A stretch of 64,000 nt of DNA. It comes from an uncultured Gammaproteobacteria bacterium. GTDB lineage: Bacteria; Patescibacteriota; Microgenomatia; Levybacterales; GWA1-39-11. The DNA is taken from positions 374,572 to 438,571 of the forward strand of contig CAYVFE010000001.1 of assembly GCA_964450885.1 (NCBI GenBank). Direction: 5' to 3'. The notes under the pieces were generated by a model. It was not told where the DNA came from, made no database searches, and worked only from the letters and a program-made list of their open reading frames with translations. The position numbers and the translations under genes were made by a program. Shown one piece after another: positions 24,330 through 58,418 of the stretch; the stretch's first letter is position 1; each line of letters opens with the position of its first letter.

Positions 24330-25085
24330 ATGAATAAATTTCTCCTGTCGGTTGTTATCCCTTCATATAACGAAATGGCAAATCTTCAGAAAGGGACTTT
24401 AGATAAGGTCATGGGTTACCTTTCTCGTCAAAAGTATGACTTTGAGGTCATAGTGGTCGATGATGGGAGTAACGATGGAAGCCGCGAGTTCGTAGCAAAT
24501 TTCGTAAAGCAGAACAAAAGGGTAAAGTTGATAGAGGGCAGACATAGTGGTAAGGCTGGGGCTGTTACGCAAGGTGTTTTAGCGGCGAAAGGAGATTTTG
24601 TTCTTTTTACAGATATGGATCAGGCAACGCCGATAGAGGAGGTAGAAAAACTTCTCCCGCAGATAGAAAAAGGATACGATGTTGTCATAGGGTCCCGCGA
24701 AGGACAAAGAAAAGGAGCGCCACTAACACGAAAGATAATGGCAAGAAGCATGGTTTTTTTGAGGTCTGTTATAGTAGGAATCCCTAATATAAAAGATACT
24801 CAGTGTGGATTTAAGTTATTCAAAAAAGAAGCTGCAAGAGAAATCTTCAGTAAAGTAAAAAAAGTCCATAACGGATTTAAATCTATTAAAGGATCATCTG
24901 TTACAGCTGGCTTTGATATAGAAGTTTTATACATAGCAGAGCAAATGAATTACAAGATTAAAGAAATTCCCGTTACCTGGTTATATGTCGAGACCCGCCG
25001 GGTAAGCCCCGTAAAAGATTCTATCGAGGGAGTTTTCGATCTTCTGCATATAAAACGCAATATTATTTCGGGAGTCTATAAATAA
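24330..25085 (+). CDS. GT2 polyprenol-phosphate glycosyltransferase (DPM1/GtrB-like)
   Basis: Carries LSVVIPSYNE…VIVVDDGSNDGS…FTDMDQATP and a Dpm1/GtrB-type C-terminus. The TGTATAAT-N6-ATG arrangement is leaderless-type. Confidence 0.8.
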   Translation: MNKFLLSVVIPSYNEMANLQKGTLDKVMGYLSRQKYDFEVIVVDDGSNDGSREFVANFVKQNKRVKLIEGRHSGKAGAVTQGVLAAKGDFVLFTDMDQATPIEEVEKLLPQIEKGYDVVIGSREGQRKGAPLTRKIMARSMVFLRSVIVGIPNIKDTQCGFKLFKKEAAREIFSKVKKVHNGFKSIKGSSVTAGFDIEVLYIAEQMNYKIKEIPVTWLYVETRRVSPVKDSIEGVFDLLHIKRNIISGVYK

Positions 25086-25086
25086 T

Positions 25087-26253
25087 ATGCTAAAAAAAAT
25101 AATTCTTCCACTTTGGATTATAGGAGGAATTTTCTTACTTTTGTATTCGTTCACTCAGGTCGATCTTTCTCTCACGCTTTCTCAAGCATCATTTATTCAG
25201 GATGTGCAGAAGGGATTTCAACATATAGGCTGGTTTAGCCGTCCACTCTCTACATATTTATATATAGGAACTATCATTTACTTATTTTCTTTGTTTGTTA
25301 TTACTATATACAACATATCTAAAAAGAGACTAACTAGTAAAACATTATGGATGATGATTATTATAGTCACGATAATACTTATCCCTTCATATAACGCGTT
25401 CTCTTATGATCTTTTTAACTATATTTTCGACGCTAGGATAGTGAGTCATTACAACCTAAGTCCATACGAATTCAAGCCCTTGGATTTTCCAGGAGATGCT
25501 ATGTTGTCTTTTATGAGATCTACTCATAGGGTATATCCATATGGTCCTACATGGCTTGGTTTTACTGTTCCATTAACTTATGTCGCGAGCGAAGTATTTG
25601 TCATAAGCCTTGCTCTTTTTAAAATCATGAGTGCTGCCGCATATCTTGGCACATGCTACTTCATAAAGAGAATCGCAGAAAATTTAAAAATAAAAAACCC
25701 GAACATGGCACTCGCGTTATTTGCGCTAAATCCACTTGTCATTATTGAAGGAATAGTCTCTGCACATAACGAAATAGTTATGATGTTTTTTGCAGTCTTG
25801 GCTTTTTATCTGTTATTCAAAAAGAGGAGGACATATTCACTGATAAGTCTAGCTATTTCTATAGGTATAAAATATGCGACAGCTATTTTTCTGCCCGTTA
25901 TCTTGGCTAAAATATTCTATAGAAAGTTAAACAACGAGCGAGTAATCCTATTTTCGGTTATACTTTCTGCTGTCGCTATAGCTGCGACTTCTCTTGCGTC
26001 AGGTCCTAATAAAAATCCAGAATTTCAGCCATGGTACCTGCTGATCGCAGCGCCGATTGTTCCATTATATGAAAATAAAATGGTAAGGATTATGTTTGTA
26101 GGTCTTTCATTTACGGTGCTTTTTTCTTATATTCCATTTCTATTCAACGGAATGTGGCCTGAGAATATTGTAAATCTTAAAAATATTCTAGTTCTGTTAG
26201 GAATATCGGGAGGAGTTGTAGGTTATTACATAATAAAGTTGTGCAGGCCATAA
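25087..26253 (+). CDS. Polytopic membrane protein, GT-C-like (DUF2029/GT87-like) putative glycosyltransferase
   Basis: Has ~10 TM helices and sits between a DPM1-like GT2 and GT-C genes. The family assignment is tentative. Confidence 0.45.
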   Translation: MLKKIILPLWIIGGIFLLLYSFTQVDLSLTLSQASFIQDVQKGFQHIGWFSRPLSTYLYIGTIIYLFSLFVITIYNISKKRLTSKTLWMMIIIVTIILIPSYNAFSYDLFNYIFDARIVSHYNLSPYEFKPLDFPGDAMLSFMRSTHRVYPYGPTWLGFTVPLTYVASEVFVISLALFKIMSAAAYLGTCYFIKRIAENLKIKNPNMALALFALNPLVIIEGIVSAHNEIVMMFFAVLAFYLLFKKRRTYSLISLAISIGIKYATAIFLPVILAKIFYRKLNNERVILFSVILSAVAIAATSLASGPNKNPEFQPWYLLIAAPIVPLYENKMVRIMFVGLSFTVLFSYIPFLFNGMWPENIVNLKNILVLLGISGGVVGYYIIKLCRP

Positions 26254-26289
26254 TTGCATGACCATTTGATGCAAATGTATAATTAAACG

Positions 26290-27819
26290 ATGAAAACAAT
26301 ACGAAAGCATATTCCAGAACTTGGGTCACTTGTAGTCATTTCATTCATCTATTTTTTCACAAGGATTATCAACATAATGCACTTGCCTATATTTACAGAT
26401 GAGGCAATTTATACCAGGTGGGCTCAGATTGCATACAACGACGCGTCATGGAGATTTATATCATTAACGGATGGAAAGCAGCCGTCTTTTGTTTGGCTTC
26501 ATATGGTATTTCTGAGATTCTTCGAAGACCCACTTCTGGCAGGTAGGATGGCCTCAGTGTTTACGGGGTTTTTGACACTTCTGGGTATATTTTTCCTTAC
26601 TCAAATCGTATTTAAAAACTTGAAAATATCGGTTATAGCTGCTGCAATTTATTTGATCTATCCATTCGCTATGGTTTATGACAGACTTGCTCTATATGAG
26701 TCTATACTTGCGATGTTTTTTGTATGGGCGCTTTACTTCCAGATGCTTCTGGTAAAAAAACTCAGACTTGATGTAGCGATGATATTGGGATTTGTACTCG
26801 GCGGAGGTGTGCTCACGAAATCTTCAGGATTTCTGGCTATATATCTTTTACCATTTCTGTATTTTATTTTGGATTTTAATAGGAAAACATTAAAAAGAAA
26901 TGCAATAAGACTTACTTTACTTATAGTAGTTTCGGTTATTATCGCAAACATAATGTACTCAATTCTTAGGCTTTCTCCATTCTTTCATATAATTGAACAA
27001 AAAAATTCTATATTCGTCTATCCTATATCTGAATGGTTGAGTTTTTCGTTGCAGATTAAGATCGAAAATATTATCAGCAATTTTAGAGGACTATTTGACT
27101 GGTTTGTGACTTATTTTAGTATCCCTTTTGCTGTAGTCGTTATTTATTCTTTTCTATTCAAGAAATTCTATAAGGAAAAGATTCTTTTGACTCTCTGGTT
27201 CTTGCTGCCATTTTTAGCACTTTTGGTTTTTGGGAAAACTCTCTATCCGAGATACGTATTTTTTATGTCGTTGCCGCTTCTTCCGATACTGGCATTTGGT
27301 TTGTTTAAGATAGCCAGCATTGTAAAGAATAAAATAATTATTGTGCTCCTTAGTATAGGATTTTTTGCTTACCCGATTTTCTCATCGTATACGATACTGA
27401 CAGACTTTTCTAATGCGCCTATTCCAAAATCAGATCTTGAGCAATTTGTTAGAGGGTGGCCAGCAGGAGGCGGAGTAAGAGAGTCGATAGAGTTTTTCGA
27501 AGAAAAAGCACTCAGTGGGGAGATATTAGTAGCGACGCAGGGAACATTTGGTCTGATGCCATACGCTTACGAGATATATTTGGGTGAAAATCCAAATATA
27601 GAGATAAAAGGGTATTGGCCGATTGAGGACCAACCTCCCACAGAAGTTTTTGAGATTGCGAAAAATAAAGAAGTATATTTTGTCTACTATCAACCATGCC
27701 CACAGTGCGCATATCCAGGTGCAGCGCCAACTAGCTGGCCGCTTGAAAAAATTGAGGAATACGAAAAAGATGATGATAATACAAGTCTTAGTATTTATAG
27801 GTTGATTGATAATAATTAG
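26290..27819 (+). CDS. GT-C family glycosyltransferase (PMT_2 / ArnT-like)
   Basis: N-terminal loop PIFTDEAIYTRWAQ with the acidic DE motif. About 12 TM helices and a soluble C-terminal domain. Confidence 0.7.
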   Translation: MKTIRKHIPELGSLVVISFIYFFTRIINIMHLPIFTDEAIYTRWAQIAYNDASWRFISLTDGKQPSFVWLHMVFLRFFEDPLLAGRMASVFTGFLTLLGIFFLTQIVFKNLKISVIAAAIYLIYPFAMVYDRLALYESILAMFFVWALYFQMLLVKKLRLDVAMILGFVLGGGVLTKSSGFLAIYLLPFLYFILDFNRKTLKRNAIRLTLLIVVSVIIANIMYSILRLSPFFHIIEQKNSIFVYPISEWLSFSLQIKIENIISNFRGLFDWFVTYFSIPFAVVVIYSFLFKKFYKEKILLTLWFLLPFLALLVFGKTLYPRYVFFMSLPLLPILAFGLFKIASIVKNKIIIVLLSIGFFAYPIFSSYTILTDFSNAPIPKSDLEQFVRGWPAGGGVRESIEFFEEKALSGEILVATQGTFGLMPYAYEIYLGENPNIEIKGYWPIEDQPPTEVFEIAKNKEVYFVYYQPCPQCAYPGAAPTSWPLEKIEEYEKDDDNTSLSIYRLIDNN

Positions 27820-27820
27820 T

Positions 27821-30247
27821 ATGTTGAGGAGTAATGCTTTTCTAGCATTTATTATTTTTTTATTTATTGGAGTTATTTTTTTTAACAAATCAGTATTTCA
27901 AGGGCAGGTTCCATTTCCTGGTGATTTGTTGATAGGACATTATAACCCCTATAATTCATATTCCTTTATGGGATATGCTCCTGGTAGCTTCCCCCATAAA
28001 GCCCAAAATATTGATGTTATAGAGCAACTATATCCATGGAAACATTTTTCTATAGAATCTTTAAAGGAATTAGAATTTCCTTTATGGAATCCGTATAACT
28101 TTTCTGGGACCCCCCATCTGGCAGCTATTCAGTCAGGAACATTCTACCCATTTAATCTGCTTTTTTTACTTTTGCCATTTAATCTTGGATGGACGATATA
28201 CATAATTTCACAGCCAGTTCTTGCTGGAATATTTACTTATTTCTTCCTAAGAGAACTAAGGCTTTCTTTCAAAAGCTCTATTCTGGGAGGGTTGGCATTT
28301 TCATTCTCTTCTTTTTTAGTAGTCTGGATGCAGTATGGGAATATAATTCATGCGGTGCTCTGGCTGCCGCTTATTTTATGGTTAGGAATTAAAAATCTAA
28401 AGAAACCAAGTCTGGTCAAATCCGTCCTGATCTCGTTATTTTTGGCATTCTCTGTGCTTGCAGGACATTTTCAAGTATCGATCTACTTATACGGATTTAG
28501 TTTTATATTTCTTGTTTTCATGACAGCTAAATTCTATAGGGAAAGATTTTTTATGAATATGCTGACTCTTGCAGGAATATATATATTTTCATTATTGATT
28601 TCATCAGTTCAGCTCATTCCATCTATCGAGATTTTCTTGAATTCATCGAGAACAGACTATACATACGAGAGATTAGTGGAATTTTTAATACCGACATATC
28701 ATTCCATAAGTATGCTTTTTCCTGATTTTTTCGGAAATCCAGTGAGCCGAAATTATTGGCCGGCCGGGACATATATAGAAAGGGCCACTTACTTTGGTAT
28801 AGTGCCGCTATTTTTTGCACTTTATGCAATTATCTCAAGAAAAAGTTCAGTCGTATGGTTTTTTGTCTTATCGATACTTGCGGTATTTATTATAGCCTTC
28901 GATTCTTTCATAACTAGATTTATTTACTCGATATATATACCTCCGATTATTGCGACTTCAGTCCCTACGAGGATAGTCTTCGTGCTGATTTTTTCTGGCA
29001 GCGTACTTGCAGCATTTGGATATAACGAAATCGAAAAAGCAAAGAAGTTCAAGCACCTGTTGCTGACGATAATAGTCTTTAGTGCCATTGTCATTTCAAC
29101 ATGGTTTTTTGTGATTGTGGCTCCGCAATTATTTCAAGGGGCCCAATGGACCATATATATGCCCACTGCACTTCGTAATTTATTTATTCCTACGCTCGCA
29201 TTCTCGCTTGTTATTTTTTTATTAATGCTTTTTATCCTCAAGGAGAAGAGACCTTTGAAAAAATATGCAAATTTTATAAAAAGATATTTGTTCGCGGTTA
29301 TACTTCTTGCAACAATTTTTGAATTATATTTTTTCTTCAGTAAATTTTCGCCCTTTTCTCCAGGAGAGTTCATTTATCCGCAGACTTCGGTGTTTAATTT
29401 TATAAAGCAAAATCAGGATATCTATAGATCATGGGGATATGGTGCCTCCAGTATTCCTGTAAACATCCAGACATATGAAAAGATCTACTCGACAGATGGT
29501 TATGACCCTTTTTATATAAGGCGCTACGGGGAGTTGTTATCGACTACAGAAAATGGAGTTGTCTCAGAATCTATAAAAAGGGCAAACGCTAATTTAGCTC
29601 CGGGATATGGGGAAGAGAATTTACGAGATAATCTATATCGACAAAAGATGATGAATATTTTGGGCGTGAAATACATTATTCATAAAAAGCCTCAGGATAC
29701 TTTTGCACATGATCAGACGTTTGATGACTCTATATATAATTTGGTTTGGAACGACAAAGATCTCCAGATTTACGAAAATACACAAGTATTACCGAGAGCA
29801 TTCATGGTTACAGACTATATAGTTTTGAAAGATGAAAAGGAAATTATAAAAAAGCTTTATGACGATTCATTCGATCCTTCTTCGCAAATAATTCTTGAAA
29901 AAGATCCGGGGTTTGAGAGCTCGGGAATGCCATTAGAATACGACTTGAAAATCAGCGACTATAGAGCCAACAAAATTGAGATATCAGTAGAATCCAGTAC
30001 TGATGCATTACTATTCTTGTCGGATTCATATTTTTCCGGATGGAAAGCGCGTGTAGATGGCTCAGAGACAAATATTTTCAGAGCAAACTACGCGCTCCGC
30101 GCTATAAAAGTCCCTAAGGGTGAGCACGCGGTGGTTTTTTCTTACGAACCAGATTCATTCAAGTTAGGATCGACAGTATCTTCGATAGCCATAGGTTCTG
30201 CTGTAATATTACTCATATTTAGTTATTATAGGAAAAGATCAAAATGA
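27821..30247 (+). CDS. YfhO-family membrane protein (GT-C-like), paralog 1
   Basis: Canonical YfhO N-terminus (QLYPWKHFSIESLKELEFPLWNPYNFSGTPHLAAIQSGTFYPFN) and a C-terminal YFSGWKARVDG motif. The ATG at 27821 directly follows the upstream stop; the tracked start at 27806 is TTG. Confidence 0.85.
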   Translation: MLRSNAFLAFIIFLFIGVIFFNKSVFQGQVPFPGDLLIGHYNPYNSYSFMGYAPGSFPHKAQNIDVIEQLYPWKHFSIESLKELEFPLWNPYNFSGTPHLAAIQSGTFYPFNLLFLLLPFNLGWTIYIISQPVLAGIFTYFFLRELRLSFKSSILGGLAFSFSSFLVVWMQYGNIIHAVLWLPLILWLGIKNLKKPSLVKSVLISLFLAFSVLAGHFQVSIYLYGFSFIFLVFMTAKFYRERFFMNMLTLAGIYIFSLLISSVQLIPSIEIFLNSSRTDYTYERLVEFLIPTYHSISMLFPDFFGNPVSRNYWPAGTYIERATYFGIVPLFFALYAIISRKSSVVWFFVLSILAVFIIAFDSFITRFIYSIYIPPIIATSVPTRIVFVLIFSGSVLAAFGYNEIEKAKKFKHLLLTIIVFSAIVISTWFFVIVAPQLFQGAQWTIYMPTALRNLFIPTLAFSLVIFLLMLFILKEKRPLKKYANFIKRYLFAVILLATIFELYFFFSKFSPFSPGEFIYPQTSVFNFIKQNQDIYRSWGYGASSIPVNIQTYEKIYSTDGYDPFYIRRYGELLSTTENGVVSESIKRANANLAPGYGEENLRDNLYRQKMMNILGVKYIIHKKPQDTFAHDQTFDDSIYNLVWNDKDLQIYENTQVLPRAFMVTDYIVLKDEKEIIKKLYDDSFDPSSQIILEKDPGFESSGMPLEYDLKISDYRANKIEISVESSTDALLFLSDSYFSGWKARVDGSETNIFRANYALRAIKVPKGEHAVVFSYEPDSFKLGSTVSSIAIGSAVILLIFSYYRKRSK

Positions 30248-31788
30248 TGAAAAATATTTTGAAGAATGCATCGTTTGTATTGCTGGTAGCTATTGTTACG
30301 CTCCCGGCGATTATCCCGCTTTTTAATTCGGGATTCATGGTGACAGATGATGGGGGATGGATGATAATTCGTCTTTCAGCATTTTACGATACTTTAAGAG
30401 ACGGACAGATTCCGGTCAGGTTTTTAGAAAGGATTAACTTCGGATACGGATACCCGGTTTCAAATTTTTTGTATCCTGGCTATCTTTATCTAGGATCTGT
30501 GGTTCACATGGTTGGGTTTGGTTTTATAGATAGCATAAAGATCCTATTTGGCTTATCTATTATTTTTTCGGGCATATTTTCGTTTATTTGGTTAAGAAGG
30601 CTATTTGGTAATGTAGACTCACTTATAGGCTCTCTTGTTTTCGTCTATTCTCCCTATCATCTATTTGATATCTACAAGCGAGGCTCACTGGGTGAGGCAT
30701 TATCGATTTCCGTAATGCCACTTGCTTTTTACGGTATCGAAAAAGGAAGTACGATATTGATAAGCCTATCAGTTTTCTTGATTTTGATATTGCACAATTC
30801 TCTAGCAGTATTCTTCCTTCCGTTGATACCTATCTATGCGCTTATCAGGAAGTCTTTTGTTAGATCCATCCCTGGTATGGGTCTGGGGATTTTCATGTCT
30901 GCATTTTTTACAGTCCCCGCATTGGTTGAATTGAAATATACAAAATTTTTTGAGACACAGATATCAAACCCTTTAGAGTATTTTGCTGATATAAATCTAA
31001 TTGGCATCGTATCTATAGTCATACTTTTTTCTACAATATTTTTAATTTTTGCGATATATAAAAATGAGATAAAAAAAGTTCCATATTTGGGATTCGTCAT
31101 ATTTTTTGGTGCAATATTCATTGCTTCAATATTTTTAAGTACTAGTCTCAGTTCTATATTCTGGCAAAACGTGAATGCGTCTTTTGTTCAATTTCCATAT
31201 AGAATATTGTCTGTTCTTATCGTGTGCTCATCTTTTTTTGCAGCATTTATCTCATATATATTGTTCAAGCAGATAAAAATAGTTGCGATTGTTATAATTT
31301 CCGGACTTGTAATATATTCCGGCTATAGCTATTTGTCAGATATTAAGTATGATAATAATCCTGATGGGTACTATTCGACAAATGAAGCGACCACTACAAT
31401 TCACGATGAGTATATGCCTGTATGGGTCAAGAATCATCCTAGTAGCCGTCCGGAAAACAAGGTAGAGGTGCTATCTGGAGATGCACAAATAACTAACTTG
31501 AGAGTTAATTCATCAAAAATAGAATTTGATACCGTTGTTAATTCTAATTCAAAAATCCGCGTGAACACTATTTATTGGCCAGGGTGGAGGCTTTTTGTCG
31601 AAGGAGAAGAAAGAGAGATTTCATATGACAATGATTATGGTGTTATGGAATTCGAATTGAGTCAATATGATGATAGAGTATACCTTTCGTTTCAGGAGGA
31701 CCTTATTAGGACACTTAGTAACATGGTATCGATCGTCGCGGCGCTGACTCTCATATATTTTATTTCCCGACCGCTGGTTAAATTTTAA
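30244..31788 (+). CDS. '6-pyruvoyl-tetrahydropterin synthase-related' polytopic membrane protein (GT-C-like), paralog 1
   Basis: Family N-terminal signature (IPLFNSGFMVTDDGGWMIIRLSAFYDTLRDGQIPVRFLERINFGYGYP) and a C-terminal YWPGWRLFVEG. Confidence 0.7.
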   Translation: MMKNILKNASFVLLVAIVTLPAIIPLFNSGFMVTDDGGWMIIRLSAFYDTLRDGQIPVRFLERINFGYGYPVSNFLYPGYLYLGSVVHMVGFGFIDSIKILFGLSIIFSGIFSFIWLRRLFGNVDSLIGSLVFVYSPYHLFDIYKRGSLGEALSISVMPLAFYGIEKGSTILISLSVFLILILHNSLAVFFLPLIPIYALIRKSFVRSIPGMGLGIFMSAFFTVPALVELKYTKFFETQISNPLEYFADINLIGIVSIVILFSTIFLIFAIYKNEIKKVPYLGFVIFFGAIFIASIFLSTSLSSIFWQNVNASFVQFPYRILSVLIVCSSFFAAFISYILFKQIKIVAIVIISGLVIYSGYSYLSDIKYDNNPDGYYSTNEATTTIHDEYMPVWVKNHPSSRPENKVEVLSGDAQITNLRVNSSKIEFDTVVNSNSKIRVNTIYWPGWRLFVEGEEREISYDNDYGVMEFELSQYDDRVYLSFQEDLIRTLSNMVSIVAALTLIYFISRPLVKF

Positions 31789-34164: not shown

Positions 34165-34184
34165 GAAATGGTTATACTTTATAT

Positions 34185-35642: not shown

Positions 35643-35647
35643 TATCT

Positions 35648-36568: not shown

Positions 36569-36569
36569 T

Positions 36570-37484: not shown

Positions 37485-37485
37485 G

Positions 37486-42482: not shown

Positions 42483-42545
42483 TAAATCAATTTAACATAG
42501 CTTTCTATAATTATCAATTGTTGGTACAATTAGCTTATAACTAGA

Positions 42546-47534: not shown

Positions 47535-47563
47535 TAAGAATATTCTGGATAGAATAATAATTA

Positions 47564-49087: not shown

Positions 49088-49188
49088 TAAGCGAAAAAAA
49101 ATGCAGTTATTTTCTGGTCTTTATATAATTATGATTATTGTTTCAACATTTTGTAGTATTGAGACAGGTATTTATTTATAATTGAAGA

Positions 49189-50832: not shown

Positions 50833-50833
50833 A

Positions 50834-52495
50834 ATGAAAAAAATTATTATTAAACGGAAGATATTAATACTTTTTTCTTTAATATTATTCATTGGATCTA
50901 TTTTGAGGCTTTATCAGTTGGGCTCCGTACCCTTGTCACTTACTTGGGATGAAGTTGCGCTGGGCTACAATGCATATTCTATATTTGAGACTGGGAAAGA
51001 TGAATTCGGAGCAACGCTGCCTGTAGTTATGAGATCATATGATGACTACAAGCCCGCATTTTATACATATTTGATAATTCCTTCCTATAAAGTATTTGGA
51101 CTTAATGAGTTTAGTGTAAGATTGCCATCTGCTCTGATGGGAATTGCTACATTGGTCAGTGTTTATTTTTTACTAAAAAAACTCTTTAAAAGAGAAGACA
51201 TTGCGCTTCTTACGATGTTTATATTGGCGATTTCTCCCTGGCATATTCAGATGAGTAGGGTCGCCTTCGAATCCAACGTGGGACTTGCTTTGAATGTTTT
51301 TGCAGCAACATTTTTGCTTTATGGTCTTAAAAGATATTGGATGATAGTTCTTGCAGCTTTATTTGCAGGTCTGAGTGTGCATACATACCAAAGTGATAGG
51401 GTATTTACACCCCTTTTTATATTAGGAATGGGAATTATATTCTTCAAGCCTCTTATGAAGGTTCCTAAAAAATATCTAGTAAGCGCAGTTGTTTTAGGGT
51501 TGTTGGTAGTTTTTCCACTGATAATTTATATATTAAACGATAGTAATGCGCTATTGAGAGCTAAAGGTACAAGTGTATTTAGTAACAACTTTACGCTCCT
51601 TAAAGAAAATGCTAGAAGAAATGAAGTTAATATCGCCGAAGGTAATGACTTAGGAAGAATCATAGATAATAGAAGGGTCATTTATGCAAAGGCCACTTTA
51701 GATGGATACCTATCACACTTTAATCCTAATTGGCTTCTAAAAGGAGACATAGCGCGACATCATGCTCCTGAAATGGGGCTTATCTATATCTGGGAGTTCC
51801 CCTTTATTTTGATCGGTATATATGTTTTGCTTTTCTCAAAATTCGAGAGAAGAACAAAGTATTTTATTTTTTTCTGGTTTCTGCTTGCTCCAATTCCAGC
51901 GTCGATCACAACAGGAGTTCCTCATGCTCTAAGAACTCTAAACTTCCTGCCTACATGGCAGTTATTTACTGCGCTTGGCCTCATAAGTGCATTTAGCGTG
52001 ATGTCTAGTATTAAATATCGATTAGTCGGTATAAAAATCAAATATATATTGTTTGTATTATTCATAATTTTTGCCGTTTTTAATTTTGTGTATTATCTCA
52101 ATCAATACTTTGTGCAGCAGAATTACTTTCATGCAAAAGAATGGCTTTTTGGTCACAAAGAAATAATGCAAGAAGTGGTAAAAAGACAAGATCAATATGC
52201 AAATGTTGTTATTACGAATAAAGAGCCCTTTGACAGATCGAATATGTACTATCTCTTTTATAGTATGTACTCACCCAGTGATTACCAAAACAGTAATCCT
52301 TCCTCTGGAGGATTTGCAGTACTTCCAAAATTTGATAAATTTACATTCCGACCAATTAATTGGGTGGAGGATAGTCAAATGGAGAACACTTTATTTGTAG
52401 GGTTGCCAGGCGAAATACCAGAATCCGCATCTATTTATACAGTGTATTATCCCGACGGGACTCCTGCTGCTATCATGTCCGGAAAAAGAAAATAA
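50834..52495 (+). CDS. GT-C glycosyltransferase, PMT_2 / ArnT-like (tandem paralog)
   Basis: Carries LTWDEVALGYNAYSI…YDDYKPAFYTYL. The ATG at 50834 follows the upstream stop immediately. Confidence 0.7.
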   Translation: MKKIIIKRKILILFSLILFIGSILRLYQLGSVPLSLTWDEVALGYNAYSIFETGKDEFGATLPVVMRSYDDYKPAFYTYLIIPSYKVFGLNEFSVRLPSALMGIATLVSVYFLLKKLFKREDIALLTMFILAISPWHIQMSRVAFESNVGLALNVFAATFLLYGLKRYWMIVLAALFAGLSVHTYQSDRVFTPLFILGMGIIFFKPLMKVPKKYLVSAVVLGLLVVFPLIIYILNDSNALLRAKGTSVFSNNFTLLKENARRNEVNIAEGNDLGRIIDNRRVIYAKATLDGYLSHFNPNWLLKGDIARHHAPEMGLIYIWEFPFILIGIYVLLFSKFERRTKYFIFFWFLLAPIPASITTGVPHALRTLNFLPTWQLFTALGLISAFSVMSSIKYRLVGIKIKYILFVLFIIFAVFNFVYYLNQYFVQQNYFHAKEWLFGHKEIMQEVVKRQDQYANVVITNKEPFDRSNMYYLFYSMYSPSDYQNSNPSSGGFAVLPKFDKFTFRPINWVEDSQMENTLFVGLPGEIPESASIYTVYYPDGTPAAIMSGKRK

Positions 52496-52500
52496 TTAAT

Positions 52501-53271
52501 ATGAATAAAATATCAGTCGTTCTCGCAACTTACAACGAAGAAGAAAACATAGAAGGATGCTTGCTGTCAGTAAAAAATCTAGCTGATGAAGTTGTAATAG
52601 TTGATGGAACATCACAGGACAAGACAGTAGATATCGCTAAATCTTTGGGAGCGAGGGTTATTTCGACAACCAACAAGAAAAACTTTCATATAAACAAACA
52701 AAAGGCCATAGATGCCGCAAAATATGAGTGGATATTGCAGCTCGATGCTGATGAAGTCGTAGATCTGGAGCTCGAGAATGAAATAAAAAAAATTATAGGA
52801 AAAAATCCTGAAGAAAACGGCTTTTGGATCCCCAGAAAGAATTATTTTTTGGGAAGATTTTTGATGAAAGGTGGACAGTATCCAGACTATACAATCCGGC
52901 TATACAGAAATGGAAAAGGTAGATTGCCTCAGAAAGACGTCCATGAACAGGCAGAGGTTGACGGAAAGATCGGATACCTGGAAAAGGCATTGCTACATTA
53001 TCCATACAAGGATTTCTCATTCTATCTAAATAAGTGGAAAAGGTATAATTCTTTTTTTGCAGATCAGATAAAAGATGAGATGAAAGATAAAGACATTATT
53101 TATAGGATTATTGCGGGATTTGGCTATCTTATCCTAAGGCCTGCTCACTGGCTTTTGACTACTTATATAAGACACAAAGGATTTTACGATTCATGGCAGG
53201 GTTTTGTATTCTCGCTAATGTCAGCTCTTAGATTTCCGGCATCATATATAATCTATCTTAAGAAAAAATGA
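52501..53271 (+). CDS. GT2 glycosyltransferase
   Basis: Carries ISVVLATYNEEENI…VVIVDGTSQDKT…LDADEVV. Confidence 0.8.
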   Translation: MNKISVVLATYNEEENIEGCLLSVKNLADEVVIVDGTSQDKTVDIAKSLGARVISTTNKKNFHINKQKAIDAAKYEWILQLDADEVVDLELENEIKKIIGKNPEENGFWIPRKNYFLGRFLMKGGQYPDYTIRLYRNGKGRLPQKDVHEQAEVDGKIGYLEKALLHYPYKDFSFYLNKWKRYNSFFADQIKDEMKDKDIIYRIIAGFGYLILRPAHWLLTTYIRHKGFYDSWQGFVFSLMSALRFPASYIIYLKKK

Positions 53272-54239
53272 GAAATATTTTAGTTACAGGAGGCGCAGGT
53301 TATATCGGAAGCTTTATGGTCAAGGCTCTTTTGGATAGGGGGGACAAGGTTGTCGTTTTTGATAATCTAAAAAGAGGGCACATAGAGGCTATAGATAAAA
53401 GGGCACAATTCGTGCAGGGTGACATTTTGAACAAGAGTGATCTGGAAAGTCTTTTGAATAGCTACTCCTTCGATGCCATTTTACATTTTGCAGGACTCAT
53501 TTCAGTAGAGGAATCGTCCAGAAATCCTGAGCTTTATAGGGAGAATAATATAGTAGGGTCAGCTAACCTTTTTGATGCGGTCGTTTCTTCTGGCACTAAG
53601 AACCTAATTTTCTCCTCTACAGCCGCTGTGTATGGGAATCCACAGAAGGTTCCGATACCAGAGGATCACTCAAAAAATCCCGCAAGCCCATATGGTGAAA
53701 CCAAACTTGCGACTGAGGAAAAGCTTAAATCACTTAGGGGGACAGATGAATCTATCAATTATGCGATACTACGATATTTTAACGCATGCGGAGCAGCTTT
53801 AGATGGCTCGCTTGGAGAAAATCATGATCCTGAGACTCACATCATACCTCTTGCGATAAGAGCTGCAAAGGACAATGGAGAATTTAAGCTTTATGGTACT
53901 GATTACGATACTAAAGACGGGACCTGTATTAGGGATTATATTCATGTGCTAGATTTGGTTGAAGCGCATATTCTAGCGTTGGAGAAGATAATCAATGATG
54001 GAGGTGGGCATTATTATAATGTAGGAACAGGGAAAGGATTTACGAACAGAGAAATAGTCGAAATGGTAAGAAAAGTCAGCAATAAGGACTTTCAAATCGT
54101 GGAGGTAGAAAGAAGAGCGGGGGATTCCAGCGAGTTAGTAGCAGATGTCACTAAGATAAAGAAAGAATTAGGATTTAATCCAAAATTCTCTGATTTAAAA
54201 ACCATCATTGAGTCCGCATGGAAATGGCACAATAAATAA
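53268..54239 (+). CDS. galE: UDP-glucose 4-epimerase (NAD-dependent SDR)
   Basis: Has GGAGYIGS (Rossmann), SSTAAVYG and YGETK (YxxxK). It is full length at 323 aa. Confidence 0.85.
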   Translation: MRNILVTGGAGYIGSFMVKALLDRGDKVVVFDNLKRGHIEAIDKRAQFVQGDILNKSDLESLLNSYSFDAILHFAGLISVEESSRNPELYRENNIVGSANLFDAVVSSGTKNLIFSSTAAVYGNPQKVPIPEDHSKNPASPYGETKLATEEKLKSLRGTDESINYAILRYFNACGAALDGSLGENHDPETHIIPLAIRAAKDNGEFKLYGTDYDTKDGTCIRDYIHVLDLVEAHILALEKIINDGGGHYYNVGTGKGFTNREIVEMVRKVSNKDFQIVEVERRAGDSSELVADVTKIKKELGFNPKFSDLKTIIESAWKWHNK

Positions 54240-54241
54240 AT

Positions 54242-55306
54242 ATGAAAAAGTGGACTGGCTTTATCGGAATAGGCAGTCTTTTTTTGGGATTGGGGTTTTT
54301 ATCAGTGCTATTTATCCTTCTCGTATATTCGTCTAGATATTCTGGATTTACAGAAAATTATTTGTTAATTGATCCAAGATATATACTTCTTGTCTATATT
54401 GCCATTAATCTATTTTTAAGAATAAAAAGCCCAGTCCGTTTTCCTAGGGTGTTATATAAAATTAATTTGTTTTTTATCCTTCCATTAAGCATTATTACCG
54501 TTGCATCGTTGACATTGCTAGAATTAGTCAATTATCCTAATTTTGTTTATAGCTTGCTGTTGACTCACTATGACAAATTATCCTATGTCCTTTTCGCATC
54601 CGGGATAGTTGCTTTCATTAATGCTCCAGATAAATGGTTAAAGTCGAACTTAAAGAAAATAATTTTTCTTAGTGCTCCAGTGCTCTTCTTGATCTTTTTT
54701 TTAATACAAACGTGGCCAATGAGCGCATTCGAAATAATGGTACGTGAAGATGGGTTTGTAGAATATTTACAATTCTTCTCTCTAATTATTTCTGGGATTT
54801 TATCATTACTGGTATTTAAATTTTTATACAAAAAAAAAGAATATTTTCTTTCTTTATTATTTTTTTTAATAACATGTACGTTTTTCTTTATTGCTGGTGA
54901 TGAAATATCATGGGGGCAGAGGATAATGGGGATTAATTCCCCTGATTATTTTTTGCAGTCGAATGTGCAGAGGGAGATCACTATTCACAACCTTGCGCCA
55001 TTTTCGGGCAAACTCGTTACAATAATATACATTGTTGTTGGACTATATGGTTCTTTATGTTGGACGTTAACCGATAAGGTTAAAAGGATATTTTCGAAAA
55101 AAGCAAGTTTATTTATTCCACCATGGTACACCTCCACCTTTTTTTTCTTTGGATTTATCTATAATTTCTATACAATATTAGGAGACCATAATATTGGTAA
55201 TTGGTCAGAGCCTGCAGAGCTATCGCTCTATTTTGGAGCAATGCTTTTCGTTATGAGTATATATCTTAGATTGCATGGACATATGTTGAATAAATTTAAT
55301 CTATGA
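54242..55306 (+). CDS. Hypothetical polytopic membrane protein
   Basis: 354 aa with ~9 TM helices. No family recognised. Confidence 0.4.
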   Translation: MKKWTGFIGIGSLFLGLGFLSVLFILLVYSSRYSGFTENYLLIDPRYILLVYIAINLFLRIKSPVRFPRVLYKINLFFILPLSIITVASLTLLELVNYPNFVYSLLLTHYDKLSYVLFASGIVAFINAPDKWLKSNLKKIIFLSAPVLFLIFFLIQTWPMSAFEIMVREDGFVEYLQFFSLIISGILSLLVFKFLYKKKEYFLSLLFFLITCTFFFIAGDEISWGQRIMGINSPDYFLQSNVQREITIHNLAPFSGKLVTIIYIVVGLYGSLCWTLTDKVKRIFSKKASLFIPPWYTSTFFFFGFIYNFYTILGDHNIGNWSEPAELSLYFGAMLFVMSIYLRLHGHMLNKFNL

Positions 55307-56343
55307 AGATCGGAATTGATATTTCTCCCTTGTCTTCAGGACACAAAGTAAGAGGCGTTGGGGCCTACGTATCTTTATTGAAAAATAACATCGAGAAGTT
55401 TGATGGTGAAAATAAGTACGTTTTTTTTGAAGGTAAACCGCCTTCAGGATTAGATTTGGTGCACTATCCGTATTTTGATCCTTTTTTTCCAGTTCTTCCG
55501 TTTTCGAAAAAGACAAAAACCATAGTTACTGTACACGATTTAACACCAATAAAGTTTCGGGAGCATTTCCCCAGCGGGGTAAAAGGGAATTTAAGATGGC
55601 AGTACAATAGATTTCTTCTAAAAAAATCAGACGGGATAATTGTGGATTCCAATGCATCAAAAAAGGATGTAGTCAAAATAATCGGCTTTAATGAAGATAG
55701 AGTTAAATCTGTATATTTAGGGTCTGATCCGATCTATAAAAAAATAAGATTGAGTGATGGTGTTAGAGACGAAGTCAAAAAAAGGTATTCTATCGGGGAT
55801 AATTTTATGATTTATGTTGGGGATGTTACCTGGAACAAAAATTTACCTAGAATTGTTTCTGCTGTAAAAAAAGTCGGAATTGAGTTTTTACTGATCGGGA
55901 AATCTATAGCTGATGACAATTTCGATGCGTCAAATCCATGGAGTAAAGATAGAGTAGAACTACGGAGAATGATAAAGGGTGATGAGAAAATTAAAGTCTT
56001 GGGCTTTGTTCCAGATGAAGATCTGTCAAAAATCTATAATATGGCGCAAGGGCTTTTGATGCCATCTTTGTATGAAGGATTTGGATTACCCGTACTTGAA
56101 GCGATGAGCTGCGGGTGTCCTGTTATAACAAGCCGGGAGGGGAGTCTACCAGAAGTTGGTGGTGATGCGGTGCTTTATGCCGATGCTTTGTCTGTAGAGT
56201 CCATCGAAGAAAAAATAAAGGAGCTGATGACGAATAAGAAGCTTAGAGACGAATTATCGGAAAAAGGGCTATTGCAGGCAAAAAAATTTAGTATCGAAAA
56301 GATGATCAAAGACACTTTAGACGTTTATAAAACATTTGGATGA
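55303..56343 (+). CDS. GT4 glycosyltransferase
   Basis: Carries MPSLYEGFGLPVLEAMSCGCPVITSREGSLPEVGGDAV. Confidence 0.8.
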   Translation: MKIGIDISPLSSGHKVRGVGAYVSLLKNNIEKFDGENKYVFFEGKPPSGLDLVHYPYFDPFFPVLPFSKKTKTIVTVHDLTPIKFREHFPSGVKGNLRWQYNRFLLKKSDGIIVDSNASKKDVVKIIGFNEDRVKSVYLGSDPIYKKIRLSDGVRDEVKKRYSIGDNFMIYVGDVTWNKNLPRIVSAVKKVGIEFLLIGKSIADDNFDASNPWSKDRVELRRMIKGDEKIKVLGFVPDEDLSKIYNMAQGLLMPSLYEGFGLPVLEAMSCGCPVITSREGSLPEVGGDAVLYADALSVESIEEKIKELMTNKKLRDELSEKGLLQAKKFSIEKMIKDTLDVYKTFG

Positions 56344-57599
56344 GAGAAAAGGCAAAATCTATAATAAAACATCCGCTAATTTCAGGAAGTATTCTTGTGT
56401 CCGGTGGGTCACTTTTTGCTAATTTTTTGAGCTTTTTGTTCAACATATTTATAAGTAGGAATCTATCCGTAAATGATTATGGGACAGTTGCTAGTCTTAT
56501 TGCGATAATCAACCTGTTTGGAATTTCGGCTGGAGCAATAAATCCTACCATTATAAGTTTTACAGGGCCCAGTTTTCTTGAAAAGAAATATTCATATATC
56601 CGAGGCGTCTATCTAAGGATTGCTAAGCCATTTCTCGCTATTGGTGCTATTATTTTATTGGTCTTTCTAGTGTTCAACGAACAGATTGCCCTTTTTTTGA
56701 ACATATCAGAAGGGAAGAGTTTGATAATAGTCGCTGCTTTCATAATTTTTATAAGTTTTGCTAGCGTTTTAAACCTTGCATTGATTCAATCCAAATTATC
56801 ATTCACTCTTTTTTCATTCCTAAATATTTTGGCAGCGGGTTTGAAGCTGATTTTGGGAGCTGTTTTTGTTCTGATGGGTTTTAGTTCATTTGGTGTCATG
56901 ATAGGAATACTGATATCTTACATGCTCCCATACCTGTTTGGATTTAACTATCTGAGGTTTTTGTTTAATGGAGGCGTTTCTGATGTGAAGGTAGACTTTG
57001 GTGATATCGTTAGATATGCTGCCCCTTCAGGAGTAGCGCTTCTCTCGCTTACAGCGATAACCTCGACCGATCTACTTCTTGTAAAACACCTTTTTGATCC
57101 TCAAACAGCTGGAGTATATGCAGGCCTGTCTCTTATCGGAAAAGTGATTTTCTTTTTTACAGCACCTATTGGGATAGTTATGTTTCCCCTTATGGCAAGA
57201 AAGCACGATAATAATGAACACCACGGCAAGATCATGCCAGCATCGCTTTTTCTGGTTGGTATGGCATCGTTCGGGATAACATTATTCTACTTTCTTTTCC
57301 CGGAATTTATCATTAATATGTTCTTAAAGAACACTTTATATCTCTCCGCAACACCATACTTAGGATTATTTGGGATCTTTATTTCTATATATTCGTTGTG
57401 TTCTATAATGATGTACTATTTTCTTTCAATTAAAAAAACCTGGATTTATAAGCCTATACTCTTGGCAGCACTTTTTCAGGGGGTCGCTATATATTTGTTC
57501 CACAGCACTTTTTATGATGTAATTTTTATATCAATTTTTTCTGTAACGTTACTATTTATTTTCTTAATCTCATATTACCGTTTTGGTAAAAGAGATTAA
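56340..57599 (+). CDS. Oligosaccharide flippase, MOP superfamily (Wzx-like), copy 2
   Basis: 419 aa with ~12 TM helices. The N-terminus is typical of polysaccharide biosynthesis proteins. Confidence 0.65.
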   Translation: MREKAKSIIKHPLISGSILVSGGSLFANFLSFLFNIFISRNLSVNDYGTVASLIAIINLFGISAGAINPTIISFTGPSFLEKKYSYIRGVYLRIAKPFLAIGAIILLVFLVFNEQIALFLNISEGKSLIIVAAFIIFISFASVLNLALIQSKLSFTLFSFLNILAAGLKLILGAVFVLMGFSSFGVMIGILISYMLPYLFGFNYLRFLFNGGVSDVKVDFGDIVRYAAPSGVALLSLTAITSTDLLLVKHLFDPQTAGVYAGLSLIGKVIFFFTAPIGIVMFPLMARKHDNNEHHGKIMPASLFLVGMASFGITLFYFLFPEFIINMFLKNTLYLSATPYLGLFGIFISIYSLCSIMMYYFLSIKKTWIYKPILLAALFQGVAIYLFHSTFYDVIFISIFSVTLLFIFLISYYRFGKRD

Positions 57600-57647
57600 T
57601 ATATGTAAGTTTACTTTTTCCTTTGCTATACTATCCACATACAAAAA

Positions 57648-58418
57648 ATGAAAAATAGCCATGCGAGTATTTCACTAGTAATACCTGCTTACAAGCAGGA
57701 GAAAACTATCCAAAAAGATCTCACAAATATAGAGAATGTTCTGGATACATTAAAAATACAATACGAAATTATCGTAATAATAGATGGCAAATTCGATAAA
57801 ACATTTCAGAAAATTAAATCTTTGAGTCGCGATAAATTAAGCGTAGTACAGCTCGATAAAAATTATGGGAAGGGATATGCTGTCCGAAAAGGAGTAGAGA
57901 AAGCGAGTGGAGATATTATCGGATTTTTGGATGCAGGAATGGATATCGATCCAAATGGAATACAGATGCTTTTAAATCATATGGTGTGGTACGATGCGGA
58001 TATTATAGTTGGAAGCAAGCTTCATCCCGTTTCTCAAGTAGAATACCCCTTTTTTAGAAAAGTTTTATCGTGGGGTTATAGAACTTTTACCCACATACTT
58101 TTTGGTTTTAAGATTCGCGATACGCAGGTGGGTATGAAACTGTTTAAGAAAAAAACCGCAAAGGACGTTTTTAGCAGATCTTTGGTTAAGGATTTTGCCT
58201 TCGATGTAGAAGTATTAGCTCTTGCCTACACTCTGGGTTATAAGAAAATATACGAAGCTCCTATAAAGCTGGAGTTAAATAAAAAATCTTCAATATCTAC
58301 ATTAAATTTCTGGAAGATTGTATTAAAAATGTTTTGGGACACATTGGCGATTTATTACAGATTAAAGATCAGGCAATATTACAAAAATAGTAATAAGAAA
58401 AACTGGATTTCGGAATGA
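57648..58418 (+). CDS. GT2 polyprenol-phosphate glycosyltransferase (DPM1-like), copy 4
   Basis: Carries ISLVIPAYKQEKTI…IIVIIDG…LDAGMDIDP. Confidence 0.75.
   Translation: MKNSHASISLVIPAYKQEKTIQKDLTNIENVLDTLKIQYEIIVIIDGKFDKTFQKIKSLSRDKLSVVQLDKNYGKGYAVRKGVEKASGDIIGFLDAGMDIDPNGIQMLLNHMVWYDADIIVGSKLHPVSQVEYPFFRKVLSWGYRTFTHILFGFKIRDTQVGMKLFKKKTAKDVFSRSLVKDFAFDVEVLALAYTLGYKKIYEAPIKLELNKKSSISTLNFWKIVLKMFWDTLAIYYRLKIRQYYKNSNKKNWISE

Follow-up and report, generated by a model that had tools for sequence, protein, structure and literature searches.

A conserved Levybacteria locus encoding twelve GT-C glycosyltransferases, four putative polyprenol-phosphate-sugar synthases and two MOP/Wzx-type flippases

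The stretch of DNA analysed here, referred to as the window, comprises 64,000 nucleotides (positions 374,572 to 438,571 of contig CAYVFE010000001.1, GenBank assembly GCA_964450885.1) and belongs to a Levybacteria bacterium (Microgenomates) of the candidate phyla radiation (CPR), or Patescibacteria. Its first 24 kb are housekeeping sequence, with genes for SecF, the CCA-adding enzyme, RecJ, two aminoacyl-tRNA synthetases, a DD-carboxypeptidase, a DEAD helicase and Lon. From 24330 to 63769 there follows a near-unbroken array rich in glycosyltransferase genes, in which the list of open reading frames (ORFs) shows 31 plus-strand genes and one small minus-strand gene, mostly joined by overlaps of 1-29 bp or separated by gaps of less than 50 bp (Table 1; genes are named by their first coordinate). 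The array measures at least 39.4 kb, or 6.7% of the 588-kb source contig, and may continue beyond the window end at 64000. The genes that a preliminary description of this DNA had singled out, four of glycosyltransferase family 2 (GT2), five of the GT-C type and two flippases, all exist on the plus strand where it had placed them, or nearby.

Pfam and NCBIfam scans, which covered every array ORF of at least 100 aa between 24330 and 63769, identified 25 glycosyltransferases: 12 GT-Cs, ten GT2s and three members of family GT4. The GT-Cs fall into four groups, with five PMT/ArnT-like, three YfhO, three PTPS_related and one MptB/GT87-like protein. Two MOP/Wzx-type flippases, a UDP-glucose 4-epimerase (GalE), an RfbH/DegT-like pyridoxal phosphate (PLP) enzyme, a methyltransferase and a membrane protein without a family, 54242, are also encoded in the array. 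Because the GC content is uniform, at about 36% across the whole window, and the locus is vertically conserved, a horizontal-transfer island was ruled out.

Table 1. Genes of the array and the surface protein encoded upstream of it, in window coordinates (TM, transmembrane; SAM, S-adenosylmethionine)
Feature	Position	Strand	Evidence and remarks
Surface protein, candidate acceptor, 743 aa	16690..18921	-	Signal peptide, fn3, LysM, CarboxypepD_reg, C-terminal TM anchor
Short GT2 #1, putative polyprenol-phosphate-sugar synthase	24330..25085	+	251 aa; PF00535 8.9e-31; top PDB match 5mlz 2.5e-16; opens the locus
MptB/MptA (GT87)-like GT-C	25087..26253	+	About 11 TM helices; PF09594 1.8e-7, 31.6 bits vs cut-off 25
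PMT_2/ArnT-like GT-C, loop-1 FTDEA	26290..27819	+	PMT_2 1.9e-12; IFTDEAIY
YfhO GT-C #1	27806..30247	+	PF09586 1.5e-23; 32-35% identical to 39119 and 43601 over full length
PTPS_related-type GT-C, by paralogy	30244..31788	+	No Pfam match; BLAST 3e-67 to 37456, 5e-36 to 31788; 12 TM helices
PTPS_related GT-C	31788..33461	+	PF10131 2.6e-13; weak GT-C_AftD match
Short GT2 #2, DPMS-class	33454..34164	+	PF00535 4e-25; ArnC 9bhc 2e-14 over residues 11-217
MOP/Wzx-type flippase #1	34185..35642	+	Polysacc_synt_3 1e-44; NCBIfam MOP flippase (WzxC-type model) 2.9e-37
GT2, SunS/Glyco_tranf_2_4 group	35648-36568	+	Family scans and paralogy
GT2, rhamnosyltransferase-like	36570-37484	+	Family scans and paralogy
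PTPS_related GT-C	37456..39180	+	PF10131 7.7e-11
YfhO GT-C #2	39119..41500	+	PF09586 2.5e-24
GT2, Glyco_tranf_2_4 group	41497..42240	+	PF00535 1.4e-21; paralogue of 35648 and 52501
DUF5652, 81 aa	42237..42482	-	PF18893 1.1e-22; 2 TM helices; sole minus-strand gene within the locus
GT4	42546..43604	+	PF00534 5.2e-20; start of most conserved core
YfhO GT-C #3, conserved core	43601..45892	+	PF09586 6.6e-28; orthologues in most of 51 loci
GT2, EpsD/MftF-like, conserved core	45892..46827	+	PF00535 7.4e-23
Short GT2 #3, DPMS/AglJ-class, conserved core	46827..47534	+	235 aa; PF00535 2.2e-34; 5mlz 5.3e-20 over residues 1-231
Divergent PMT-like GT-C, loop-1 LAYDQ	47564..49087	+	PMT_2 0.0079, under cut-off; family profile matches 49189 family
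PMT/ArnT-like GT-C, pair member A	49189..50832	+	PMT_2 1.1e-9, PMT 2.4e-8; SLTWDEVAWGY
PMT/ArnT-like GT-C, pair member B	50834..52495	+	ORF opens at 50798; PMT_2 6.5e-13, PMT 6.1e-9; SLTWDEVALGY
GT2, Glyco_tranf_2_4 group, conserved core	52501..53271	+	PF00535 5.4e-21
UDP-glucose 4-epimerase GalE, conserved core	53268..54239	+	TIGR01179 400 bits vs cut-off 262
Polytopic membrane protein, 354 aa, all-helical	54242-55306	+	Between GalE and GT4; no Pfam/NCBIfam match
GT4	55303..56343	+	PF00534 9.3e-29
MOP/Wzx-type flippase #2	56340..57599	+	Polysacc_synt_3 2e-15
Short GT2 #4, DPMS-class	57648..58418	+	256 aa; PF00535 1.5e-20; 5mlz 2.3e-16 over residues 7-208; DAG for DXD
GT4	58415..59524	+	PF00534 5.6e-43
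PMT_2 (PMT/ArnT-like) GT-C, loop-1 ATFDEYAW	59525..60841	+	PMT_2 1.3e-15, 58.4 bits, strongest in window
GT2 with two C-terminal TM helices (288-306, 318-336)	60862-61902	+	346 aa; directly 3' of PMT_2 59525
RfbH/DegT-like PLP enzyme	61809-63065	+	Family scans
SAM methyltransferase	63065-63769	+	Family scans; last complete ORF

Four of the ten GT2s are short proteins that form a paralogue group of their own, with 25-34% mutual identity over 180-250 aa in BLAST comparisons, and all four match PF00535 with scores of 74-119 bits (cut-off 23.3; E 1e-20 to 2e-34). Their top solved relatives in single-sequence searches were the Pyrococcus dolichol-phosphate mannose synthase (DPMS; 5mlz), Synechocystis GtrB (5ekp) and ArnC (9bhc). 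A profile built from the four sequences reached the same three proteins at 1.5e-32, 1.9e-29 and 8.8e-27, respectively, in alignments that cover the whole catalytic domain, its acceptor-side half included (5mlz residues 23-220, GtrB 23-192, ArnC 8-225). In contrast, the comparison GT2s 52501 and 60862 aligned to this DPMS-like profile over their N-terminal 88 and 112 aa only, and matches between the short GT2s and the other six GT2s were mostly limited to the N-terminal ~80-155 residues. The longest NCBIfam matches of the short GT2s were to ArnC, PgfS, AglJ, PpgS and a haloarchaeal dolichol-phosphate-hexose transferase; 46827 matched AglJ (TIGR04182) at 2.9e-37 and has a conserved QDADLEY motif. 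The position of the DXD motif is occupied by DAD in 46827, DMD in 24330, DGD in 33454 and DAG in 57648. For the second protein, the ORF begins at a TTG at 33433 (243 aa), with an ATG at 33454 (236 aa). The short DPM1/GtrB architecture that the preliminary description had read in these four GT2s is borne out by the PF00535 matches, the separate paralogue group and the nearest relatives. Sequence comparison thus supports their placement in the class of polyprenyl-phosphate sugar synthases.

Acidic loop-1 residues are present in every GT-C family of the locus. The LTWDE and FTDEA motifs previously noted in 26290, 49189 and 50834 can be read in those sequences, which have significant PMT_2 or PMT matches. 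The PMT model proper (PF02366) scored 34.3 bits in 49189 and 36.2 bits in 50834 against a cut-off of 22.7, with 26290 just under it at 22.0. None of the GT2s and GT-Cs of the preliminary description fell into an unrelated family in searches with PF00535, PMT_2 and PF02366. It had regarded 47564 and 59525 as weakly assigned. This holds for 47564 by its Pfam score, but 59525 has the best PMT_2 match of all. The family profile of 47564 matched that of 49189 with 92.7% probability (hhalign, E 4e-7) across the N-terminal region from TM1 through loop 1 to TM4. Among orthologues of other GT-Cs, loop-1 motifs were also kept, THDG in 18 of 20 and P-x-P-x-D in 28 of 33.

Seven GT-Cs had escaped the earlier inventory: YfhO 27806, 39119 and 43601, PTPS_related 30244, 31788 and 37456, and the MptB-like 25087. 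The YfhO proteins scored 83.6, 86.1 and 98.0 bits with PF09586 (cut-off 28.5), and the PTPS_related and YfhO families are mutually homologous (hhalign 98.2%, E 2.7e-14). A single phmmer match of 26290 to Lamassu LmuB was rejected as spurious.

To follow the locus through related genomes we compared 51 loci from species-representative genomes and five more obtained by exact look-up, the latter including L001, L002 and L054-L056. The conserved order runs GT4, YfhO, GT2, short GT2 of the 46827 type, a variable number of GT-Cs, PMT-A (49189) and PMT-B (50834); it continues with further variable GT-Cs, often of the 37456 type, GT2, GalE, GT4, MOP, short GT2 of the 57648 type and GT4. PMT-B followed PMT-A in 44/45 loci by a gap criterion, and the exception, L014, also has both genes. 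The 46827 orthologue lay upstream of the pair in 30/39 loci. All eight loci that reach far enough have the MOP gene of the 56340 type followed by a 57648 orthologue, and the orthologue of 33433 (33454) precedes MOP 34185 in 3/3 loci and in L054. A 5' module of short GT2, MptA_B-like GT-C and PMT_2 protein is kept in each of the three relatives examined (L054-L056), always first in the locus; its 24330 orthologues are 63-83% identical, and overlaps of 4-8 bp are seen at two junctions.

In relatives, the number of GT-Cs per 21.6 kb ranges from 3 to 8 (mean 6), with extra GT-Cs inserted between the conserved genes in varying number, and the core GT-C is 55-60% identical in distant members. In GCA_964425075.1 two pieces of the locus lie on one contig (680,158-701,312 and 707,673-729,316), so that glycosyltransferase genes extend from ~689.4 kb to the edge at 729.3 kb, or ~40 kb, if the intervening ~6 kb, which were not fetched, are continuous. 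No orthologue of 59525 was found at the corresponding position in relatives. Many of the metagenome-assembled genome records that carry the locus (L003-L053) are titled 'uncultured Gammaproteobacteria bacterium' (binchicken/SRP co-assemblies), and a few Eisenbacteria, Acidiferrales or Sulfotelmatobacter; these labels are almost certainly placeholders or wrong.

The universally conserved tandem pair 49189/50834 deserves closer description. Its members are 35% identical over 531 aa, their full length. W35, D36 and E37 are invariant in a 51-sequence alignment of the 49189 family; in a separate count, 45 of 49 orthologues of 49189 had LTWDE and one LSWDE, the remaining three giving no match to the regular expression, and WDE or FDE was present in 46/46 orthologues of 50834. 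More than 3755 homologues of 49189 were found, and the 120 best-scoring are 55-75% identical; the few of these 120 whose source is named come from Patescibacteria, Levyibacteriota, Microgenomates or Parcubacteria. An AlphaFold2 model of 49189 based on 51 homologues (pLDDT 83.7, pTM 0.86) has the GT-C_A fold. With Foldseek, this model matched ArnT 5ezm at 2e-7 (TM-score 0.55) and the oligosaccharyltransferase (OST) subunits STT3, AglB and PglB at 2e-7 to 1e-5, then ALG9 at 3e-4 and Chaetomium Pmt4 at 4e-4, with AftA and EmbA-C lower and AftD also among the matches, a generic GT-C_A result in which ArnT, OST and PMT are not separable.

At the sequence level, the 51-sequence profile reached only ArnT 5ezm among PDB sequences (E 0.007), and phmmer searches of 49189, 50834 and 59525 against the same set gave no match. 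None of the GT-Cs of the locus matched PMT_4TMC (PF16192) at E<=0.01. The NCBIfam ArnT model gave 26290 a score of 23.8 against a cut-off of 567 and did not match the other GT-Cs, and the window has no ArnA, ArnB or ArnD of the 4-amino-4-deoxy-L-arabinose (Ara4N) pathway. Both the sequences and the modelled fold thus place 49189 and 50834 in the PMT/ArnT superfamily, at a depth that does not assign them as GT39 protein O-mannosyltransferases or as ArnT. The two proteins may form a heteromer or catalyse two sequential steps; a heteromer would fit the finding that the tandem is conserved universally, with an invariant WDE in both members.

In a related locus, L002 (JGI 3300027819, 2070-4163, plus strand), a 697-aa fusion protein joins an N-terminal PMT_2 GT-C domain (30.4 bits) to a C-terminal dimerisation ('pedestal') domain of penicillin-binding proteins (PF03717, 41.5 bits). 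This fusion suggests that some such GT-Cs work beside the peptidoglycan synthesis machinery.

The preliminary description had likened the locus to the actinobacterial Ppm1 and Pmt system and to the PMT heterodimers of eukaryotes. On that account the short GT2s would be Ppm1/DPM1-like synthases of polyprenol-phosphate-mannose, and the PMT-like GT-Cs, with 49189/50834 as a PMT1/PMT2-like heterodimer, would mannosylate Ser/Thr residues of secreted proteins such as the surface protein encoded at 16690-18921. Consistent with this are the PF02366 scores of both pair members above the gathering cut-off, their invariant DE motif and tandem arrangement, and the Pro/Thr-rich signal-peptide protein ~5 kb upstream; the short GT2s, being soluble, also resemble the DPM1/Ppm1 class without TM helices. 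Bacterial Pmt, however, bears the PMT_4TMC domain that every GT-C here lacks. Neither did phmmer connect these proteins with solved PMTs, the profile reaching ArnT alone, and the structural comparison placed ArnT and OST subunits (~1e-7) above Pmt4 (4e-4). The window contains no GDP-mannose genes, and since GalE is the sole sugar-nucleotide enzyme conserved in the core, a UDP-hexose is indicated rather than GDP-mannose. Furthermore, the host is a CPR Levybacterium rather than an actinobacterium, and the PMT_2 GT-Cs of monoderm bacteria act mostly on wall polymers (PMC8035078). We therefore regard protein O-mannosylation of this type as improbable, and this specific analogy as unsupported.

A different model, serial elongation and branching by GT-Cs outside the membrane, is raised by the first GT-C of the array. 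The 25087 protein passed the NCBIfam MptB cut-off (NF038066, 47.4 bits vs 40) and matched MptA (TIGR03459) at 7e-18, although at 64.8 bits against a cut-off of 439, and its homologues bear PF26314. It is translationally coupled to the Ppm1-like GT2 24330, an arrangement conserved in relatives. Together with the AftA, EmbA-C and AftD matches in the fold search and the variable extra GT-Cs between conserved genes in relatives, this would suit the polymerisation of a lipoglycan or wall polysaccharide by the logic of mycobacterial lipomannan/lipoarabinomannan (LM/LAM) and arabinogalactan. The ratio of four donor synthases to twelve GT-Cs, drawn from four families, likewise resembles the mycobacterial pattern of one donor and many GT-Cs. 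On the other hand, the MptB match is partial, covering residues 76-249 of a 388-aa protein against a 553-position model, and no lipid-anchor genes like those for phosphatidylinositol mannosides (PIMs), nor ligation genes, were identified. The three GT4s, the six GT2s outside the DPMS-like group and the two MOP proteins moreover argue for partial synthesis of the glycan in the cytoplasm. This possibility, which overlaps with the interpretation that we favour below, is in our judgement a doubtful one.

Both proteins named as flippases in the preliminary description, 34185 and 56340, belong to the MOP/Wzx family, and its remark that they fit several lipid-linked donors is strengthened because each MOP gene always adjoins a DPMS-like GT2. 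Within the window, this adjacency had a permutation P of 0.064. The same two genes could instead serve a classical Wzx-dependent heteropolysaccharide pathway to a capsule, exopolysaccharide or secondary cell-wall polymer, in which GT4s and GT2s would build a repeat unit on undecaprenyl diphosphate (Und-PP), a MOP protein would flip it and the GT-Cs would be accessory. A match of 2.9e-37 to the WzxC-type model agrees with such a pathway, as do the three GT4s and six ordinary GT2s, the GalE, RfbH/DegT-like and methyltransferase enzymes that could make modified sugars, and the position of the flippases beside short GT2s, which recalls the glycosyltransferase genes of O-antigen clusters. However, ORFs of at least 100 aa between 24330 and 63769 included no phosphoglycosyltransferase (PF00953, PF02397), Wzy/O-antigen ligase (PF04932), chain-length regulator or LytR-CpsA-Psr (LCP) ligase, and the lone membrane protein without a family, 54242, lacks both a fold match and conservation. 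The short GT2s are closest to polyprenol-phosphate enzymes right across the acceptor half, and twelve GT-Cs would be left unexplained. A classical Wzx pathway thus seems rather unlikely to us.

The 54242 protein has ~150 homologues, all annotated as 'hypothetical', and no orthologue in any of the 51 related loci. Its C-terminal half occurs as stand-alone proteins of 220-260 aa in other phyla, and E169, E174, E221, W224, G225, N241, Q243, E245, H249, N250, E323 and E326 are invariant. The AlphaFold2 model is confident (pLDDT 92.2), but Foldseek found no PDB match (best E 1.5); ferritin, R2lox and TenA-type bundles occur in the weak tail of matches, a hint that the protein may contain a metal-carboxylate site within the membrane.

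Among the remaining GT2s, 35648, 41497 and 52501 are a paralogous trio of ~250-300 aa that are 30-37% identical. The 41497 and 52501 genes come after a GT-C and 35648 after a MOP flippase, and the 52501 type is kept beside GalE in relatives. The GT2 60862 resembles GtrB and ArnC in topology, yet its alignment with the DPMS-like profile is confined to the N-terminal 112 aa; it may be a fifth lipid-sugar synthase, of another subtype.

Two genes outside the array touch on its subject. A DAGK_prokar family protein (PF01219 at 1.6e-30) is encoded at 10182-10550 on the plus strand; the members of this family in monoderm bacteria include undecaprenol kinase, whose activity would provide the polyprenyl-phosphate carrier. 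The interval from Lon to the first gene of the locus contains, at 21672-22817 on the minus strand, a RimK-like ATP-grasp gene with a weak 'sugar-transfer associated ATP-grasp' match, and a counterpart holds the same place in L055 (4213-5340, minus strand).

From these results we think it probable that the locus encodes a multi-module system for glycosylation across the membrane, composed of polyprenol-phosphate-sugar synthases, flippases and GT-Cs. In known systems of this kind, the C55-phosphate-sugar made by a GT-A enzyme is carried across the membrane by a flippase of the GtrA or Wzx type and is then used as donor on the outside by a GT-C that has a PMT_2 domain, a YfhO domain or no Pfam domain (PMC8035078). 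Here, the four short GT2s would transfer a monosaccharide from a nucleotide sugar, probably a UDP-hexose or UDP-N-acetylhexosamine, to polyprenyl phosphate at the inner membrane face, with GalE interconverting epimers or supplying the 4-epimer. The MOP/Wzx flippases would move at least two of the resulting lipids, the products of 33454 and 57648, and the twelve GT-Cs would consume the lipid-linked sugars outside the membrane, either assembling envelope glycoconjugates or decorating them. Since four donors would have to supply twelve transferases, a single donor probably feeds several GT-Cs. The tandem pair 49189/50834 would be the core extracytoplasmic transferase, and the six other GT2s and three GT4s would add sugars at the cytoplasmic side. 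The general logic already proposed for this DNA, in which DPM1/GtrB-type GT2s provide polyprenol-phosphate-sugars to GT-Cs acting on protein or polymer, agrees with the homology, the synteny and published precedent (PMC8035078; 10.1101/180810; PMC12041528).

Several observations weigh against this interpretation. All four short GT2s scored far below the NCBIfam equivalog cut-offs (the best being 46827 with AglJ, 128.6 vs 325), so that they are assigned to a class and not as orthologues of any characterised enzyme. None has a predicted TM helix, unlike GtrB, ArnC and the Pyrococcus DPMS. No ORF for a partner like GacJ or DPM3 was found, the sole small membrane ORF being that of DUF5652; this protein, whose gene has the matching position and strand in the distant relatives L001 (3135-3392) and L002 (1765-2004), could itself act as such a partner for the soluble GT2s. 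The sequence DAG(M/R)(D/E) replaces the DXD motif in 57648 and in all 8 of its orthologues (L003, L016, L023, L024, L030, L035, L048 and L049), and therefore 57648 may differ mechanistically.

No ORF for a GtrA-type flippase was found in the window and, because MOP flippases usually move Und-PP-oligosaccharides, the adjacency of MOP and short GT2 genes could reflect the classical Wzx pathway. For YfhO and PTPS_related the GT-C fold is taken from Pfam and the literature, and hhalign comparisons with shallow alignments gave no link from either to the PMT family. The 'pairing' of GT2s with GT-Cs in the preliminary description also needs qualification. A GT-C gene adjoins three of the four short GT2s, but 12/32 genes are GT-Cs and half of random gene orders match this (permutation P=0.50), which is the level of chance. 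It is the linkage conserved across genomes, and not the adjacency within the window, that supports a coupling of the two enzyme classes. Finally, the sequences themselves show which genes are present, to which families and paralogue groups they belong, how their order is kept in relatives and which catalytic motifs are conserved; the lipid donor, the flipping step, the identity of the sugars and, entirely, the acceptor are inferred.

For any one particular acceptor our confidence is accordingly much lower than for a mechanism based on lipid donors and GT-Cs. The system may assemble and decorate a secondary cell-wall or membrane-anchored glycopolymer or lipoglycan. In monoderm bacteria, PMT_2 and YfhO enzymes glycosylate teichoic acids and wall polysaccharides, and the characterised PMT_2 enzymes act mostly on wall polymers (PMC8035078, Table 2). 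In addition, some of the enzymes (YfhO, PMT-like or both) may modify Ser/Thr/Pro-rich regions of surface proteins, so that we favour a mixed role. In streptococci, the YfhO-family proteins PgtC2 and PgfM1, with GtrB or PgfS, O-glycosylate disordered extracytoplasmic regions rich in Ser/Thr, and an epimerase gene belongs to the operon (PMC12041528, PMC5856776). The protein encoded at 16690-18921 contains a Pro/Thr-rich linker, TPTPTPSPTNTPAPTNTEQPTSTPSTPIP, at about aa 392-420, the sole genuine Ser/Thr/Pro-rich tract in the window. Its tie to the locus ~5 kb away is circumstantial; its presence nevertheless makes protein glycosylation by some of the enzymes plausible.

The genomes of CPR bacteria are tiny (the long contigs met in this analysis measure about 0.6-1.1 Mb), and next to nothing is known about the chemistry of their envelopes. 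Spending at least 39.4 kb of a 588-kb contig on the locus, with synteny in more than 50 Levybacteria/Patescibacteria genomes, implies an important surface glycoconjugate. We suggest, very tentatively, that Levybacteria and perhaps Microgenomates generally possess a lineage-specific major envelope glycopolymer built largely outside the membrane by about 12 GT-Cs, in which four polyprenol-phosphate-monosaccharides flipped by MOP transporters would feed the line and a PMT-like heteromer of 49189 and 50834 would be its core. If true, LAM- and arabinogalactan-type biosynthesis would have an independent counterpart outside the actinobacteria, one that would also be a candidate determinant of the cell-surface and host-attachment biology of CPR bacteria. 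In any case, the locus offers a parts list for heterologous testing, with four candidate polyprenol-phosphate-sugar synthases, two flippases and twelve GT-Cs. For glycobiology, the MOP/Wzx flippases coupled to DPMS-like GT2s and the conserved bacterial PMT-like tandem pair are the leads. Full-text literature searching found no description of the locus and no relevant work on GT-C enzymes or glycosylation in CPR/Patescibacteria, Microgenomates or Levybacteria.

Each module, then, is a known kind of system with known chemistry. What is new is the scale, one conserved locus encoding twelve GT-Cs from four families together with four donor synthases; the lineage, CPR Levybacteria; the systematic coupling of MOP proteins to DPMS-like GT2s; and the universally conserved PMT-like tandem pair. 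With the GT39 systems (Ppm1/Pmt and eukaryotic PMT1/PMT2) the locus shares the N-terminal PF02366 domain, the loop-1 DE and a paralogous pair that always occurs together, but no PMT_4TMC or MIR domain is present here, the nearest fold is ArnT and nothing points to mannose. With ArnC/ArnT (GT2 and GT83) it shares ArnT 5ezm as the best solved match of the 49189 family and ArnC among the top matches of the short GT2s, whereas the ArnT model score is far too low and the Ara4N genes are missing from the window. CPR Levybacteria are presumed to be monoderm and to have no lipid A.

The mycobacterial Ppm1 and MptA/MptB/PimE/Emb/Aft enzymes offer a parallel in the Ppm1-like GT2 without TM helices that adjoins an MptB/GT87-like GT-C. 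One lipid-linked donor could likewise serve many GT-Cs, with assembly outside the cytoplasm. The lineage is a different one, however, the MptB match is partial, and neither a PIM anchor nor genes for decaprenyl-phospho-arabinose are present here.

The closest architectures, by analogy, are those of monoderm bacteria: CsbB/YfhO, Pgf and, nearest of all, streptococcal GacI/K/L. The streptococcal Pgf (PgfS/PgfM1/PgfE/PgfM2) and GtrB/PgtC2 systems bring together a GT-A enzyme, YfhO GT-Cs and a UDP-sugar 4-epimerase in one operon (PMC5856776, PMC12041528), as does the conserved core of YfhO 43601, short GT2 46827 and GalE 53268, with a Pro/Thr-rich surface protein nearby; the NCBIfam scores, however, are low (PgfS 79.5 vs 500, PgfM1 27 vs 1500, PgfM2 24 vs 1400) and far more enzymes are encoded here. 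In the CsbB/GtcA/YfhO systems that act on teichoic acid in Bacillus, Listeria and Staphylococcus, YfhO GT-Cs again accompany GtrB-class GT2s (PMC5836110, PMC8035078). CsbB nevertheless has C-terminal TM helices and works with a GtrA-type flippase, neither of which occurs here, and the window has no teichoic-acid synthesis genes.

In Streptococcus pyogenes, GacI, a GT-A protein without TM helices, makes undecaprenyl-phosphate-N-acetylglucosamine (GlcNAc), GacK is a Wzx-type flippase and GacL a PMT_2 GT-C (10.1101/180810; PMC8035078 Fig. 2b), and GacI/J/K/L together add GlcNAc side chains to the group A carbohydrate (10.1101/180810). The Levybacteria locus differs in having no small GacJ-like activator that we could find, and in lacking, within the window, both a pathway for a rhamnan backbone and an initiator of the GacO type; it has four synthases and twelve GT-Cs instead of one each, and the similarity is at the superfamily level. 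The likeness lies in the combination of a GT-A enzyme without TM helices, a nearby flippase of the Wzx rather than the GtrA type, and a PMT_2-type GT-C. Such a set is formed here by MOP 56340, short GT2 57648 and PMT_2 59525, and a comparable one by GT-C 31788, short GT2 33454 and MOP 34185.

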